Positions 31,123 through 48,863 of a stretch of 64,000 bases of DNA are shown here, one piece after another. A model generated the notes under the pieces. The model did no database searches, was not told the origin of the DNA, and was given only the letters and a program-made list of their open reading frames with translations. The position numbers and the translations under genes were made by a program. Positions within the stretch are counted from its first letter, which is position 1; the number at the start of each line of letters is the position of its first letter. The stretch is from a virus, in IMG/VR virus record IMGVR_UViG_3300044692_000046, positions 31,149 to 95,148 of that record; one strand, given 5' to 3'.

Positions 31123-31958
31123 GCCGCCCCTCCTGCCTGCTCCGCTTCCATCGCCGCCAACTCGGCCTCCACCCGCTCGTCGAACTCCCCAGGACGTGGC
31201 TCCCTGCGCCCCGGCACGCGCCGTGGGCCCACCAGTGCGTGGCAGAACGAGCACTCCTCCCACGCCGACAGCGGGAACCGCTTCAACGTCAGCAGGTCGC
31301 ATTTCGGGCACGGCACCGGCAGCGCCTTGGCCGACATGCCCGTGACGCGGCGCATCAGCGCCAGATGCTCCCGCAGCTCCTCGCAGAAGTCCCCGAACGC
31401 CTCATCGTGGTCCGCCGCCCAGTCCACCCGCGCCCGCAGCCAGCCGGCCAGCCGGTCCGGGGTCGGCACCGGCAGCCGCTCCGGCAGCATGTCGGCGCGC
31501 GCCTCCTGCCAGTACCTCGCCCACTGATCCAGCCACCGCAGCGTCGGAATCTCCCCGGTCTGATCGTTCGCGGGCACCAGCTCCGGGGAGCCGTCCGCGG
31601 CGCGCACCAGGTGCCGTTCCCACGTCACCACCTGCCGGGAGCCGCCCTCCACGTCCACTGTCACGACTCGCCGCTGTGTCACGATGTGCGGCACCAGCCC
31701 GTCAGACACGCCGTCCCGTAGCCGGTGGGAGTGGATCGACGGGACGGGCAGCATCAGGTCCAGGGCGTGCAGGTTCAGCCGGCCTGTCGAGGTCAGCACC
31801 TCATCCGGCAGGTGGTGCGTCCACAGGTCCACCAGTTCGTCCAGCGCGGTCCGCGGCCACTGCCGGCACCACCAGCAGATGTCGCCCTCGCCGGGTTTCG
31901 GGTCGCGGCGGAAGCACAGGACGCAGGAGCCTTCCGGCTGCACGGTCTCCTCGGTCAT
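31119..31958 (-). CDS. Zn-finger protein resembling actinophage late-gene regulators
   Basis: CVLC..CWWC N-terminus; LAGWLRARVDWA..DFCEEL; CPKC..CSFC; no C-terminal HTH. Confidence 0.6.
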   Translation of the reverse strand: MTEETVQPEGSCVLCFRRDPKPGEGDICWWCRQWPRTALDELVDLWTHHLPDEVLTSTGRLNLHALDLMLPVPSIHSHRLRDGVSDGLVPHIVTQRRVVTVDVEGGSRQVVTWERHLVRAADGSPELVPANDQTGEIPTLRWLDQWARYWQEARADMLPERLPVPTPDRLAGWLRARVDWAADHDEAFGDFCEELREHLALMRRVTGMSAKALPVPCPKCDLLTLKRFPLSAWEECSFCHALVGPRRVPGRREPRPGEFDERVEAELAAMEAEQAGGAA

Positions 31959-43656: not shown

Positions 43657-44508
43657 TCAGCACGCCTCCTCGTCCTGCGCCGGGAGTTCCTCAAACAGCG
43701 ACGCTTGCCGGCCCAGCGGGCGGTTCGACCACAGCACCTCCGTGCGGGATTCCCAGGAGCCGCCCTGGCCTGTGGAGGTCGCCATCGTGTGCCGATGCCA
43801 AGTGGCGTACAACTCGTCGTCGTACAGCGGCGACGGGTAGCCACACAGCACAACCGCCGCCTCGCAGGCGTGCAACGCCTCCGCTAGTTCCCGGTGTTGC
43901 GCCTCTGCGGGCATGTCGTGGGCGTAGCCGCCCGACCGACGCGTCTCCCCGAGGTATGGCGGGTCCACGAACAACAGCACGTTCGGGTCGCGACCGTACG
44001 AGGCGATCACTTCCAACGCCGGGCGGCACTCCAGACTCACCGAAGCGAGCCGGACGGCAGCTGGTGCCATCCGCTCCACGTAGCCGCGCAGATAGTCCGG
44101 CATCGACGCTGACGACCCGGCGGGGTTCACGTAGTGCCGCCAACCGGTTCGGGTTCGCACACCGGCCCGGCCCTGGGTGAGCTGGATCCACACTCGCCGG
44201 GCCCGCTCCAGGTCGTCCACCTCGGCCATGTCGTAGGCCGCGGCGTGCTCGGCGCGCGAGTGCGGCGTCAAGGCGCAGACCCTCGCCAGGTCGTCCGGGC
44301 GGTCCCGCAGGATCTGCCAGAACACCATCAGGTCGCCGTCGAGGTCGTTCACCGTCTCGTGCGCCGACGGCTTCTTCGCCAGCAGCACAGCAAGGCTTCC
44401 GGCGTAGGGCTCCACGTAGTGGCCGTGCGGCGGGAGCAGGCTCACGATCTGCTCGGCCAGCGTCATCTTCCCGCCTAGGTAGACGATCGGTGGCTTCAAC
44501 CCGCTCAT
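43657..44508 (-). CDS. DNA adenine methyltransferase (Dam/D12 class)
   Basis: YLGGK, YVEPYAGS, NDLD, FVDPPY. Confidence 0.95.
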   Translation of the reverse strand: MSGLKPPIVYLGGKMTLAEQIVSLLPPHGHYVEPYAGSLAVLLAKKPSAHETVNDLDGDLMVFWQILRDRPDDLARVCALTPHSRAEHAAAYDMAEVDDLERARRVWIQLTQGRAGVRTRTGWRHYVNPAGSSASMPDYLRGYVERMAPAAVRLASVSLECRPALEVIASYGRDPNVLLFVDPPYLGETRRSGGYAHDMPAEAQHRELAEALHACEAAVVLCGYPSPLYDDELYATWHRHTMATSTGQGGSWESRTEVLWSNRPLGRQASLFEELPAQDEEAC

Positions 44509-44569: not shown

Positions 44570-45952
44570 TCAGATCGCCATCGAGACGAAACGGGAGAAG
44601 TGCAGCTGCGCCGCGACCGTCACAGTGCCGGTCGACGCGTCGCGGGCCTTCGCGATGATGAAGTCCGCCTCGCCGGCGCGCGGGCACTCGTCGTCGTAGT
44701 AGTCCTCCCGGTGCAGCAGGATCACCACGTCTGCCGCCGCTTCCAGATCCCCGGACTCGCGCAGGTCCGACAACACGGGCCGCTTGTCCTGGCGCTTCTC
44801 GTTGTCGCGGTTGAGCTGGGTCGGGACGATCAGCGGCACTTCCAGCTCGCCGGCAAGCTCCTTGAGCCCGCGGGCGACCGCGGCGACCTCCTGCTGCCGG
44901 TTCTCGACCCGGCGGCCCGGCTTCACTAGCTGGGCGTAGTCCACGACCAGCATCCCTAGCCCGTGGCGGCGCTTGTGCCGCTGCGCCTCACCGCGCAGCG
45001 TATTGAGGGTGAGGTCGCGTTCTTCGGACAGCCACAGCGGGATCTCCGACAGGTCACCCGCTCGGGCCGACAGCTTTCGCCAGTTGTCTTCGTCGAGGCC
45101 GCCGTCGCGGATGCCTTTCAGCGGTACGCGCGCCTCCGCCGCCAGCAGCCGGTACATCAGCTCCAGGCGGGTCATTTCCAGACTGAACATCGCCACCGGG
45201 TAGCCGAGCTTCGCCGCAGTGAGAGCGAACCCGGTGGACGCTACAGACTTGCCCATGCCCGGCCGCGCCGCCACCAGGACCAGTTGGCCGGGGCGCCAGC
45301 CGCCCAGCATGTCGTCCAGGTCGACCAGGCCCGTGGGGATGATGGTGGGCCTTTCCTCGATCTTGACTGTGTTGTTGGCCTGGATCGCGTCGATCGCGTC
45401 CGGCAGCAGGTCCGGCACCGACACCAGCAGGCCCTGCGTGGAGATCGTGGCGGCAGCCTCGGCCAGCCACTTCTCAGCCTGGGCGAGCACATCCTCCGGG
45501 GACAGCATCCCGGAGGTGTGTGCCCCGTAGCCGAGCTGGACCAGCTGCCCGCCGACCTGGATGGTGCGGCGCAGGAACGCGGTCTTGGCGACCTTCCTGG
45601 CGTAGTAGGTGGCGCTCGCCGCAGCCGGCGTGTTCTGCCACAGGGTGTGCAGGTACGCGGCACCGCCCAGCCGCTCCAACTTCCCCGCGTCCTGTAGCAC
45701 CGACGACACGGTCACGAAGTCCACCGGCTCGCCCCGGCCGAACATGTCCACCATCACCGAGAACAGGTCCGCGTGGCGAGGCTGGTAGAAGTCCTCAGCC
45801 CGCAGGATCTCCACGACCTCGCCGATGGCGATGGGGGACATGAGCATCGCGCCGAGCACCGCCTGCTCCGACGGCAGGTGGTGTGGGGGTTCGTTGTCGA
45901 ACTCGGTGCCGGTCGGCTCGTCTGGGACGGCGTGCAGGTCAGCGGCGGTCAT
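44570..45952 (-). CDS. dnaB: Replicative DNA helicase
   Basis: EQAVLGAML, AARPGMGKS, FSLEM, VDYAQL, DLRESGDLE; start reassigned to ATG 45952. Confidence 0.95.
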   Translation of the reverse strand: MTAADLHAVPDEPTGTEFDNEPPHHLPSEQAVLGAMLMSPIAIGEVVEILRAEDFYQPRHADLFSVMVDMFGRGEPVDFVTVSSVLQDAGKLERLGGAAYLHTLWQNTPAAASATYYARKVAKTAFLRRTIQVGGQLVQLGYGAHTSGMLSPEDVLAQAEKWLAEAAATISTQGLLVSVPDLLPDAIDAIQANNTVKIEERPTIIPTGLVDLDDMLGGWRPGQLVLVAARPGMGKSVASTGFALTAAKLGYPVAMFSLEMTRLELMYRLLAAEARVPLKGIRDGGLDEDNWRKLSARAGDLSEIPLWLSEERDLTLNTLRGEAQRHKRRHGLGMLVVDYAQLVKPGRRVENRQQEVAAVARGLKELAGELEVPLIVPTQLNRDNEKRQDKRPVLSDLRESGDLEAAADVVILLHREDYYDDECPRAGEADFIIAKARDASTGTVTVAAQLHFSRFVSMAI

Positions 45953-47052
45953 CAGGCACTCTCCAAACCATCGAACAGCGACGCCTGACCGGACACCTCG
46001 ACGGGCGGCTTCGCCACACCCAGCACCTTTGCCAACTGACCGGGGTCGGTGGTGCGCCAGGTGGCGAGCCGGCAGTAGTCGGCGGACCGGTCCACGCTGA
46101 TGCCGTGCCGACCCAGCGCCTTGGCGATCAGCGCGGTGGTGCCGGTGCCGCCGAACGGGTCGAGCACCACGCCGGCCGGCGGGCACCAGCCGCGGATGAG
46201 TCGATCCGGCCAGCGGGTCGGGAACGCGGCGAAGTGGTCCACGCCGAGCTCGGTCGGCACCTGGAGCGGCTCGGTGGCGACCTCCCACACGCTGCTCGGC
46301 AGCTTGCCGAGCGGGTTCACGCCGGCCCTCGGCACATCGGTCAAGGTTGACGAGTGCCTGGTGGCCACCCCAGCCGGCTGCTCGCCGCGATCCCTCATCT
46401 GCGGCGCGAATCGACGTTGCGGCTTCGCCTCGTACGGCTGCCGGATCTCGTCGACCGCGCTGTAGTAGCGCGGCTGCTTGACGAGGTGGAACCACTGCTC
46501 GTGCGAGCGCCGCACCCGGTCCGTCACCGACTCGGGTAGGCCGTTGGGCTTCGACCAGATCAGCTCGGCGCGCAGGATCAGGCCCAGGTCGTCGATGCAG
46601 CGCAGCGCGTACCGCCACGGCAGACCCATCAGCGACTTCTCCGGCACGTACCGGCCGCCGTCCGGGTCGGTGATGTTCTCGTACGGCATGCGCGCCAGGC
46701 CGGCGGCGCGGTCGCGCTTCCAGTCTTTGACCAGCTCCGAGCGATCCGGGAACAGGCCGTCCTGGTGGCTGGACATGCGCGCGGCGACGCGCTGGGAGTA
46801 CTTGTCGCCGAGGTTCACCCACAGCGATCCGGACGGCTTGAGGACCCGCACCCACTCCCGGGTGCACTCGATCAACGCGTCGATGTAGGCAGCCGGGGTG
46901 CGCTCGGAGCCGATCTGTTCGGCGTAGTGCCCGCCGCCGTCCTGGTAGCTCCGGAGCCCGAAGTACGGCGGGGAGGTCACCACGAGATCCACTGATGCGT
47001 CGGGCAACGGTAGGTGTCGAGCATCGCCACGCAGGACGGATGCCGTTCCCAT
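45952..47052 (-). CDS. Beta-class N4-C/N6-A DNA methyltransferase (5' end supplied by the insertion)
   Basis: TSPPY motif IV, HFAAFP, VLDPFGGTGTT motif I. Confidence 0.9.
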   Translation of the reverse strand: MGTASVLRGDARHLPLPDASVDLVVTSPPYFGLRSYQDGGGHYAEQIGSERTPAAYIDALIECTREWVRVLKPSGSLWVNLGDKYSQRVAARMSSHQDGLFPDRSELVKDWKRDRAAGLARMPYENITDPDGGRYVPEKSLMGLPWRYALRCIDDLGLILRAELIWSKPNGLPESVTDRVRRSHEQWFHLVKQPRYYSAVDEIRQPYEAKPQRRFAPQMRDRGEQPAGVATRHSSTLTDVPRAGVNPLGKLPSSVWEVATEPLQVPTELGVDHFAAFPTRWPDRLIRGWCPPAGVVLDPFGGTGTTALIAKALGRHGISVDRSADYCRLATWRTTDPGQLAKVLGVAKPPVEVSGQASLFDGLESA

Positions 47053-47734
47053 ACCCGCCATCATGGTAGGCACTGAGTACCCTGTTGGCATGGCTTCAGC
47101 ACCAACCGATCTGGCCTACGCGGCCGGCGTTGTGGACTCGGACGGCTACATCGGTGTGCACCGCAGCACCTATGCGATGCGGGTCCGCGGCGACGCTGGC
47201 CAAGCCGTCTACGTGCCGCGCGTCGCGGTCAAACAAGTGACCCCACAGGCACTGGACCTGCTCCACGAGGTGTTCGGCGGGCACCGGTACAGCGGGAAGC
47301 CGACAGCCGCCCGTGGCCGGCCGCTGCTCGGCTGGGCCGTGCACTCGGCCATGGCCGCCCGAACCTGCGAAGCGCTGCTGCCGTTCCTCAGAATCAAGCG
47401 CGAGCAGGCGCTCAACGCCATCGAGGTAGGCCGACTTAATGCGCTCGGGGAGCGCCACCGGTTTGATCTCCCCGAGGTTGACCCTGCAGAGCCTATGGTG
47501 ACCATGGCCGAGGCAGCCCGCAGGCTCGGCAAGCGCTACGACGTGGTGCTGCAATCCGTGCGCCGGGGCAACGTGCCGCACCTGCGCCTTGGACCACGGA
47601 AAGTGCTCATCCCGGAGTCGTACCTTGTGATCTGGGCAAGGCGCGGCACGAACGCACCGCGCCGCGCGGACATCACCACGCAGCTGGAGGTGTGCCTGGC
47701 GCGCGCCCAGGAGCTGAACCGGGTTGGCCGCTGA
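46963..47734 (+). mobile_element. Free-standing homing endonuclease cassette carrying a replacement MTase 5' end
   Basis: Bounded by direct copies of AGTACGGCGGG (46962-46972, 47734-47744); duplicated MTase N-terminus on each side. Confidence 0.8.
47090..47734 (+). CDS. Single-motif LAGLIDADG endonuclease with inserted excisionase-type HTH
   Basis: LAYAAGVVDSDGYI, LLPFLRIKREQA; TMAEAARRLG..G..P..RLG..VLIP; TACCCT 6 nt before ATG 47090. Confidence 0.9.
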   Translation: MASAPTDLAYAAGVVDSDGYIGVHRSTYAMRVRGDAGQAVYVPRVAVKQVTPQALDLLHEVFGGHRYSGKPTAARGRPLLGWAVHSAMAARTCEALLPFLRIKREQALNAIEVGRLNALGERHRFDLPEVDPAEPMVTMAEAARRLGKRYDVVLQSVRRGNVPHLRLGPRKVLIPESYLVIWARRGTNAPRRADITTQLEVCLARAQELNRVGR

Positions 47735-47827
47735 GTACGGCGGGCTGGTGACGATCAGGTCCACGCTCGCGTCCGGTAGCGGCAGGGCGCGGGCATCGCC
47801 CCGCAGGATCGTTGCGGTACCCAACAT
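47735..47827 (-). pseudogene. Orphaned original 5' end (31 codons) of the DNA methyltransferase
   Basis: MLGTATILRGDARALPLPDASVDLIVTSPPY, still TGATG-coupled to the upstream gene, broken right after SPPY. Confidence 0.85.
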
Positions 47828-48186
47828 CAGCACGCCTCCCCCGGGTCGTCTTCGGACATCTCCGCGATGCGCCCGAGCAGATCCCGGCGGCCGGCACGCC
47901 AGCCAGCCTTGTACGGCTCCTCCTCGGCCGCGACCAGCAGCGTCACCGGGCCTCGGGCCAGCAGGTCGTCCCAGGTGTTGTGCACCTTGGTCACACCGGC
48001 CGGCATGCGCCCGCGGTCCCAGACCATCCAGAACTCGCCGCCGAGCGGGTACCAGACGCCGATGTTCGCGCCCGACGACACCCAGATCTCCTGATCGCGG
48101 TAGTAGCCGTAGTTGATGGCCACCACGGCGCCGCTGCACAGGTCCGGCTCGGGGTCGCCCGCCCGGAACACCTTCGGCTCGCTCAC
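47827..48186 (-). CDS. Hypothetical protein
   Basis: Coupled at both ends. Confidence 0.6.
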   Translation of the reverse strand: MSEPKVFRAGDPEPDLCSGAVVAINYGYYRDQEIWVSSGANIGVWYPLGGEFWMVWDRGRMPAGVTKVHNTWDDLLARGPVTLLVAAEEEPYKAGWRAGRRDLLGRIAEMSEDDPGEAC

Positions 48187-48863
48187 CGCGCACCACCCGG
48201 CACCCGCCGGTCCGGGCCGGAGAACCCGACCCGCACCGAGTCCAGCAGCCGCGACGCGATCCGATCCCCCACCGCCTCGTCCAACTCGTCCGCGTCGGTG
48301 TTCGCCGTGATCACCATCGGCAGGTGATCCGCCCACCGGGTGTCCACGATGTCCAGCAGCGCCTCCGCGCCCCAGTCCGAGATCCGCGCCGACGTCAGGT
48401 CGTCGAGGAACAGCAGGTCGCACGTCTTGTACCGGTAGATCTTCGATAGGTGCTCGTCGTCCGGCCTCGGCCGCACATCCCCCGCCAACTGCACGTGCGT
48501 GCGGAACTCCCACCTCAACGTCTTGTTGAGATGCGCGAACGCCAGCGCCGTCTCCCGCAGCACCCCGTACGCGGCGTGCGTCTTGCCGGTGCCGCGCAGC
48601 CCCAGCAGGATCAGCGACGGCACCCCCCGCGAGTTGTCGACGAACTCCCGCACCCAGCGGGCGATGCGCGGGTGCTCGACCTTCGCCTCCTGGAACTCCA
48701 TCCGGATCCGCCGGGCCAGCACCCCCTCGGTGCGTTCCACCCGCCACGCGATCGGGTCGAAGCGGTCCGCGTCGATCTCTTCCTGCGTCAGCGGCGGCAG
48801 GTCCTTCGGGATCCTGGCCCGGATCTGCTCGACGAGATCCGCGAGGTTCTTCGGCTCGTTCAT
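48183..48863 (-). CDS. DnaC/IstB-like AAA+ helicase loader
   Basis: GLRGTGKT, LLFLDDL, ITAN, GDRIASRL, GPDRR. Confidence 0.9.
   Translation of the reverse strand: MNEPKNLADLVEQIRARIPKDLPPLTQEEIDADRFDPIAWRVERTEGVLARRIRMEFQEAKVEHPRIARWVREFVDNSRGVPSLILLGLRGTGKTHAAYGVLRETALAFAHLNKTLRWEFRTHVQLAGDVRPRPDDEHLSKIYRYKTCDLLFLDDLTSARISDWGAEALLDIVDTRWADHLPMVITANTDADELDEAVGDRIASRLLDSVRVGFSGPDRRVPGGAR

Follow-up and report, generated by a model that had tools for sequence, protein, structure and literature searches.

A free-standing LAGLIDADG homing endonuclease cassette with a recoded methylase N terminus in a soil phage and its relatives

We analyzed a 64,000-nucleotide stretch of viral DNA (positions 31,149 to 95,148 of IMG/VR record IMGVR_UViG_3300044692_000046; hereafter the window, with positions counted from its first letter), in which the gene for a phage beta-class N4/N6 DNA methylase is split at its catalytic motif IV by an antisense gene for a LAGLIDADG-type endonuclease. 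In our reading, to which we assign a probability of about 0.75, the window carries a free-standing homing endonuclease cassette of ~770 bp, inserted between the SPP and Y codons of motif IV, that brought with it a recoded N terminus for the methylase.

A split methylase gene with a duplicated N terminus

On the methylase strand, the locus begins with a stub that preserves the first 31 native codons of the methylase gene (MLGTATILRGDARALPLPDASVDLIVTSPPY, ending in VTSPPY; 47735 to 47827, minus strand) and holds the left part of the split target. The stop codon of the upstream gene (TGA, 47829-47827) overlaps the ATG of the stub (47827-47825) as TGATG, and the triplet following the stub, TCA, is the reverse complement of the endonuclease stop codon (TGA, 47732-47734). 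The endonuclease gene runs antisense to the methylase (47090 to 47734, plus strand), encodes 214 amino acids, or 223 from an alternative start at 47063, and fills 645 to 672 of the ~770 nucleotides. Beyond it lie a second methylase N terminus of 30 recoded codons (MGTASVLRGDARHLPLPDASVDLVVTSPPY; 46963 to 47052, minus strand) and, fused to it in frame, the methylase body (45952 to 46962, minus strand), which begins FGLRSYQDGG and matches PF01555 (N6_N4_Mtase) at an E value of 1.1e-41. The rebuilt open reading frame (ORF) is intact over 379 codons. SPPY occupies residues 40 to 43, ahead of a motif I-type DPFGGTGTT near the C terminus, which is the layout of beta-class N4/N6 methylases.

The stub and the second copy agree at 25 of 29 residues, 14 of which are encoded by different codons; the last string common to both is CCGCCGTACT. 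Since the stub matches the methylase at an E value of 3.8e-12 in a within-genome search, the duplication is no chance match. An initial annotation had described the stub, the antisense ORF, the second copy fused to the body, and the TGATG overlap; every one of these sequence statements proved correct, and its residue and codon counts were reproduced. It had treated the stub as ending after 31 codons. The sequence match does end there, but the reading frame remains open for 212 further codons past 47735.

The same arrangement in related loci

We scanned viral, genome, and metagenome collections with the methylase and with an alignment of the endonuclease. These scans, in line with the search that the initial annotation had proposed for other LAGLIDADG homologues flanked by duplicated N termini, recovered ~16 additional loci in which stub, antisense endonuclease, second N terminus, and body follow one another along the methylase strand. 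The recurrence of the layout in contigs of other metagenomes also dispels the doubt that the duplication might be an assembly artifact. The endonucleases of these loci are 36 to 78% identical to that of the window, and some of the loci have no detectable stub, partly owing to short contigs. In all, the insert occurs at the same codons, between SPP and Y, in ~17 diverged loci, and 37 related phage methylases are insert-free.

Alignments were needed for this recovery, as scans of viral contigs with single proteins (the endonuclease or the product of the upstream gene) gave no match. A second viral scan with divergent members as queries added no new full-length loci. Among 401 genomes of the class to which a Phycicoccus metagenome-assembled genome (MAG) belongs, the gene was present only in that MAG, and a search for the short second-copy ORF as a called protein found none.

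At three loci (L137, L138, and L121), the endonuclease and a small extra ORF are free-standing beside an intact methylase, with no stub. This form looks like the donor type from which the insert form could arise. The small ORF encodes 71 to 82 amino acids without a Pfam match and lies directly upstream of the endonuclease on the same strand, between the endonuclease and the methylase start, in L137 and L121 (2634-2882 and 3134-3382, respectively, as oriented) as well as in L134 (1353-1568). Separately, the insert-free allele whose N terminus is most like the stub of the window (26 of 30 residues; L042:2588-2956) has a distant endonuclease homologue (36%) ~1 kb upstream on the same strand.

The endonuclease

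The endonuclease is a single-motif, I-CreI-like LAGLIDADG enzyme with an added helix-turn-helix (HTH) domain, as judged from its motif, its PHROG match, and its predicted fold. The LAGLIDADG-type motif reads LAYAAGVVDSDGYIG, in which D16, S17, D18, and G19 are invariant across 28 homologues, and the protein matches PHROG 5046 at an E value of 2e-16. An AlphaFold (AF2) model built from the 28 homologues has a predicted local distance difference test (pLDDT) score of 92 and contains the alpha-beta-beta-alpha-beta-beta-alpha core fold. Foldseek aligns residues 1 to 120 with I-MsoI, I-CvuI, and I-CreI at a probability of 1.00 and an rmsd of ~3 A over 120 residues. The LAGLIDADG domain (approximately residues 1 to 120) is followed by a C-terminal, excisionase-like HTH domain. 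The initial annotation had called a LAGLIDADG ORF; the motif, PHROG 5046, and the fold uphold that call, but no Pfam LAGLIDADG model does, and the HTH domain had gone unmentioned.

I-MsoI, I-CvuI, and I-CreI are homodimeric single-motif enzymes. A two-copy model of the window's endonuclease scores 0.69, versus 0.00 for the best control, and places the interface on the LAGLIDADG helix, although this pass may mirror likeness to solved I-CreI dimers; 20 of 30 solved pairs and 1 of 23 single chains attained that mark. The enzyme is thus predicted to be, and probably is, a homodimer. Compared with its closest relative (L132), the gene has 37, 30, and 116 changes at codon positions 1, 2, and 3, respectively, and this dominance of third-position changes indicates that the endonuclease ORF is a real gene. 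There are 182 homologues at an E value of 1e-3 or below, many of them 55 to 78% identical and most labeled "excisionase family DNA binding protein" or left without a name.

The insertion site

Joining the stub to the body yields AGCCCGCCGTACTTCGGGCT, a 20-bp pseudo-palindrome with 8 of 10 symmetric pairs around a central GTAC. The left half of this candidate target, AGCCCGCCGTAC, is the end of the stub (47735 to 47746, minus strand), and the right half, TTCGGGCT, is the start of the body (46955 to 46962, minus strand). The initial annotation had proposed searching insert-free alleles for the palindrome; of the 37 found, two (L011 and L033) carry the exact 20-bp sequence. Stubs remain homologous to native alleles through CCGTAC(T), or in three loci only through CCG, so that the break falls within or next to the central GTAC, where a LAGLIDADG enzyme would be expected to cut and to leave 4-nucleotide 3' overhangs. 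The second copy has TCC at the position of the stub's AGC.

Neither the window locus nor five relatives gave an Rfam match at an E value of 1 or below, and there is no in-frame Hint domain in the sense orientation, the endonuclease ORF being on the opposite strand. The antisense gene, the lack of an Rfam match, and the presence or absence of the insert at one site together argue for a homing element without an intron or intein, in agreement with the earlier description of an intron-less cassette.

In L001:2110-3984 (Gordonia phage Ailee), L004 (Sedona), and L002:2128-4119 (Mycobacterium phage DotProduct), a LAGLIDADG homologue of ~30% identity lies within a C5-cytosine methylase gene, past the ENV motif and in a different reading frame. 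The records differ, giving a joined coding sequence (CDS), one 663-amino-acid methylase, or separate genes. The same lineage of endonucleases may have invaded this second family of methylases as well.

Which N terminus is native

Codon usage and nucleotide distances distinguish the two N termini. GC content at third codon positions (GC3) is 0.88 in stubs, 0.85 in native alleles, and ~0.85 in bodies, compared with 0.72 in second copies; in the window, the stub has a GC3 of 0.92, like the body, and the second copy 0.67, in a gene and genome at ~0.9. At nine of nine loci, the 37 native alleles are nearer in nucleotide sequence to the stub than to the second copy of the same locus. Second copies also have codons of their own. 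For the first Pro of SPP, CCC is used by 8 of 13 second copies versus 1 of 37 native alleles; for Ser, 11 of the 13 second copies use TCG and none uses AGC; and a TCG-CCC-CCG signature is found among the second copies. Changes in second copies average 7.0, 3.8, and 12.4 per 24 codons at codon positions 1, 2, and 3, and they are mainly at the third position also in loci where a stop codon follows the copy (see below). The native-like codons of the stubs, together with the low GC3 and cassette-specific codons of the second copies, indicate that the second copy is cassette-borne and silently de-optimized. The initial view of the stub as ancestral and of the second copy as a recoded, cassette-donated allele is therefore borne out by GC3, distances, and codon signature.

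Second copies share more residues with the stub of their own locus than with the stubs of other loci (permutation P value of 1.5e-4), a likeness that is absent at third positions, which are saturated. No simple scheme in which the stub is a dead relic and the second copy is foreign accounts for these lineage-matched residues.

An endonuclease-less hybrid allele was found on a 151-nucleotide contig (depth, 2.1) from another run of the same soil sample, the record of which is also filed under a second study and may be one data set filed twice. The contig corresponds to a 772-nucleotide deletion with its joint at 47029 to 47802, at the common string TCCTGCG. The product, which lacks the endonuclease gene, reads in frame from stub codons 1 to 8 into the second copy (from codon 8 onward) and then into the body. 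Codons of low GC3 indicate that it derives from a cassette-bearing genome. On what is thin evidence, either a deletion joined the two repeats or the second copy served as a repair template. Another joint among the same contigs, 46821-47734, was disregarded (side of 22, low likeness).

Translation of the rebuilt methylase

The rebuilt methylase has a start region at 47053 to 47091 (minus strand), in which the ATG at 47091 opens a 13-codon extension, MPTGYSVPTMMAG; the start of the endonuclease gene, on the opposite strand, overlaps this region. The extension is homologous to those of relatives (M..YS....KGGTGAS), for example that of L133 (...YSVPT...). Relatives have a strong AAGGAAAGGAGGT element before the second copy; the window has lost it and has several ATGs instead. 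The stub frame continues through the antisense endonuclease gene for 212 codons (47096 to 47734, minus strand), and its TGA (47098-47096) lies 4 nucleotides before the ATG at 47091. In 10 of 10 stub-bearing loci, this frame crosses the antisense gene without a stop and closes at, or overlapping with, the start of the second-copy ORF, with stop/start overlaps of the form TGATG in L132 and L013 and ATGA in L134 and L145. The open antisense frame is suggestive but is not significant alone and is not proof.

A consensus scan of the locus detected no sigma-70-like promoter and no terminator, and a look-up of RNA records for this stretch listed none. With no promoter detected and a stub-frame stop beside the restart ATG, translational coupling from the stub frame is favored, from the layout of the sequence, over the donated promoter of the initial annotation. 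Ribosomes arriving from the upstream gene would probably translate the stub frame across the antisense gene, terminate at 47098-47096, and reinitiate at the ATG at 47091.

Stop-containing junctions in the relatives

An in-frame join of second copy and body is found only in the window, in L134 and L135, and in L137 and L138. In 12 other loci (L013, L039, L132, L133, L139 to L145, and L158), the copy ends in SPP (SPPY in L158) and is followed by a stop codon (TAG, TGA, or TAA), 0 to 6 nucleotides, and then the Tyr (or Phe) codon of the body. Examples are CCG TAG TT CCG TAC in L143, CCG TGA CT CCG TAC in L139, CCG TAG C TCG TAC in L039 (L039:1198-1216), and CCA TAG CTG TAT in L142; L013 has the same stop-gap form at 860-880. 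The stop plus spacer measures 6, 7, 8, or 9 nucleotides in 11 loci, representing all three frames, and 4 nucleotides (TGA plus C) in L158. In those 11 loci, the codon before Tyr is CCG, CCA, CCT, TCG, or CTG, each of them readable by a Pro anticodon when G.U pairing is permitted. The initial statement that the cassette rebuilds the gene thus holds for the window and for L134 and L135 but not for 12 relatives with a stop and a short gap, the in-frame join being the minority state.

That a stop is kept in all 12 loci argues for selection on the stop. The bodies are open in 11 stop-state loci, 5 of them complete at 320 to 494 codons and the rest running off contig ends, while a random 330-codon frame at this GC content is open with a probability of ~1e-3; the body of L158, its frame shifted by TGAC, was left out of this count. 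Pro-Pro ahead of a stop terminates poorly, and E. coli ribosomes are known to hop short distances over stops. In the 11 loci with a Pro-like landing codon, a short hop by the ribosome would regenerate SPPY. In addition, the 8-nucleotide gaps read as an imperfect tandem repeat, CCGTAGTT.CCGTACTT, which suggests a take-off and landing pair that would have been born by duplication of the target core.

The ancestral and commonest state of the family could accordingly be pictured, at somewhat less than even odds, as a miniature translational bypass: ribosomes would read UCG-CCC-CCG, meet a stop, pass 0 to 3 nucleotides, land on a Pro-pairable codon (CCG, CCA, or CCU, with UCG or CUG via G.U), and resume at Tyr. 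The gap of 6 to 9 nucleotides would break the target and so confer immunity, and the ribosome would restore SPPY. The stop state fills the deep branches of a weakly supported, midpoint-rooted tree, in which the in-frame state arises about three times, and the window may be a gap-less derivative. The main rival to a bypass is that the stop-state methylases are dead and each insertion young.

Other ways of reading across the junctions were rejected. Gaps of 6, 7, 8, and 9 nucleotides would need three mechanisms if frameshifting or readthrough were the general answer, and none of these restores SPPY. No ATG, GTG, or TTG that could serve reinitiation inside the body is present among the first codons read at the joins. 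Predicted hairpins around the stop-gap vary between loci, and no covariation can be claimed for them.

Weighing the alternatives

Several observations weigh against the cassette reading set out above. At this GC content, an open in-register antisense frame is expected by chance at ~0.34 to 0.48 per gene. Pfam LAGLIDADG_1, LAGLIDADG_2, and LAGLIDADG_3 do not match the endonuclease at an E value of 0.01 or below, the only Pfam signal being a weak one to HTH_17. The rebuilt junction differs from the reconstructed target by 3 nucleotides within 30, and immunity through AGC to TCC plus other silent changes is a guess. Most relatives do not rebuild the methylase frame. Finally, the endonuclease-less contig has second-copy-type codons, which alone could mean that the second copy is native.

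That last point belongs to a reversed polarity, in which stub codons 9 to 31 would have arrived with the cassette. The 151-nucleotide contig is identical to the second copy and body over 79 of 79 positions and joins the stub only upstream of codon 8, with a one-letter difference in the upstream 38 nucleotides, as in a sister strain. The same contig is equally explained by inter-repeat deletion or second-copy-templated repair, however, and a native second copy would have a GC3 of 0.67 in a gene and genome near 0.9, next to a stub at 0.92; stubs are also nearer native alleles at nine of nine loci, and second copies of many loci have common cassette-specific codons. We consider the reversal unlikely. 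We think it similarly improbable that the methylase is a casualty, destroyed by the cassette, with the second copy a decaying by-product of illegitimate one-sided repair. Such damage would account for the stop, and often frameshift, at the join in 12 relatives; the phage has a second methylase, and the dN/dS of the body is 0.25 to 0.55, which is not very low. Decay does not agree, however, with a window frame intact over 379 codons, with second-copy changes falling mainly at third positions, with second copies that match the lineage-specific residues of their own locus, or with bodies that are open where readable in 11 of 12 stop-state loci. An insert that is removed from the RNA as a group I or II intron, or from the protein as an intein, is very unlikely; the related LAGLIDADG genes within C5-methylase genes of Gordonia phages, with CDSs annotated as joined, might speak for it. 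The endonuclease is antisense and occupies nearly all of the insert, Rfam is silent for the window and five relatives, the boundaries lack the U/G rule of group I introns, and the second copy already yields an intact frame.

We therefore return to the homing cassette with a recoded N terminus. The endonuclease would probably cut insert-free alleles at the pseudo-palindrome around GTAC, and repair from a cassette-bearing genome would copy the cassette into the cut allele. The native N terminus would remain as the stub, doubling as the left homology arm, while the cassette would supply a synonymously recoded N terminus and start signals ahead of the body, giving a full methylase without splicing.

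Genomic setting

The source is a complete 95,148-bp IMG/VR phage contig of soil origin with terminal repeats and a GC content of ~68 to 70%. The locus is part of a minus-strand replication module that comprises, in order, a DnaC-like loader (48183-48863), the upstream gene of 119 amino acids (47827 to 48186), to which no function is assigned and which has no Pfam or PHROG match, the interrupted methylase, DnaB (44570-45970), and, two genes downstream of the interrupted methylase, a D12-class N6-adenine DNA methylase (43657-44508); all are on the minus strand. The D12 methylase may let the phage tolerate loss of the interrupted one. A 22-kb Logan contig covers the locus with zero differences; it is probably from the same sample and so lends no independent support to the layout. 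Megablast of the locus against phage records gave no match.

Comparison with known systems and significance

Precedents for the concept exist in fungal mitochondrial 3'-end replacements and in the T4 MobA element. The phage T4 MobA/gene 60 mobile element was reportedly described by Bonocora et al. in 2011. As here, a free-standing homing endonuclease splits a conserved phage gene and the element brings its own version of the host segment around the cut site (homR). The T4 element combines an endonuclease, the homologous replacement region, and a stop-initiated gap that guards against self-cleavage, and a survey found that homR resembles the local host more than the homR of other clades (bioRxiv 10.1101/2022.08.31.505936). 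The own-stub likeness of second copies parallels that finding, the GGA-UAG of gene 60 places a stop after the last codon before the noncoding gap as in the window's relatives, and the "hit and run" loss of MobA, which leaves a fused gene, resembles the hybrid allele. The T4 enzyme, however, is a sense HNH nickase rather than an antisense LAGLIDADG-HTH protein, and its element deletes 55 to 75 nucleotides of the host gene, whereas here the host N terminus persists as the stub. The T4 gap spans 50 nucleotides and has known stimulators; those of the relatives are 4 to 9 nucleotides including the stop, their bypass is putative, and the window itself, unlike gene 60, is contiguous with no coding gap.

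A mobile endonuclease ORF with a duplicated gene end was reportedly found in Allomyces atp6 by Paquin et al. in 1994. Glomus mitochondrial atp6, atp9, cox2, and nad3 likewise have mobile endonuclease ORFs with a duplicated gene end (PMC3630166). These fungal elements are intron-less like the cassette and fuse a foreign copy of a gene terminus in frame, leaving the native terminus as an untranslated relic that can be likened to the stub; their copies are alike in protein and only 64 to 81% alike in DNA, much as the second copy is recoded. They replace the 3' end, in sense and often in phase, whereas the cassette replaces the 5' end and so needs start signals too, and their hosts are organelles rather than a phage. 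I-CreI, I-MsoI, and I-CvuI share the fold, the single motif, and the dimer via the motif helix (predicted here), and the candidate target is, in the I-CreI manner, a pseudo-palindrome centered on 4 bp. Those enzymes are encoded in group I introns, have no C-terminal HTH domain, and are 15 to 22% identical to the endonuclease described here. Finally, in the terminase of Streptomyces phage phiHau3, bypass of 10-nucleotide inserts has been proposed, with a junction peptide detected by mass spectrometry in E. coli (PMC10732093). In this case, too, short inserts break up an essential frame of an actinophage, although the trigger is a rare UUA codon rather than Pro-Pro-stop and there is no endonuclease cassette.

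New here are the 5'-end replacement, the antisense LAGLIDADG-HTH enzyme, the site in a methylase catalytic motif, and a large actinophage-associated family, the common form of which may use a miniature bypass. The cassette of the window would be the 5'-end mirror of the fungal mitochondrial replacements and a relative, in logic, of T4 MobA. A selfish endonuclease could thus occupy an essential catalytic motif without an intron or intein, by means of a silently recoded 5' end and a means of starting translation. The proposal is directly testable, since the nuclease is compact and I-CreI-like, carries an HTH domain, and has a defined 20-bp candidate site. The family (182 homologues, with ~17 loci examined) offers natural replicates of the gain of immunity, of the avoidance of repeat recombination through synonymous de-optimization, and of the stop-gap bypass. 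If true, the bypass would mean that the MobA/gene 60 logic occurs in nature a second time, independently and in actinophages, where it works through poor Pro-Pro termination.

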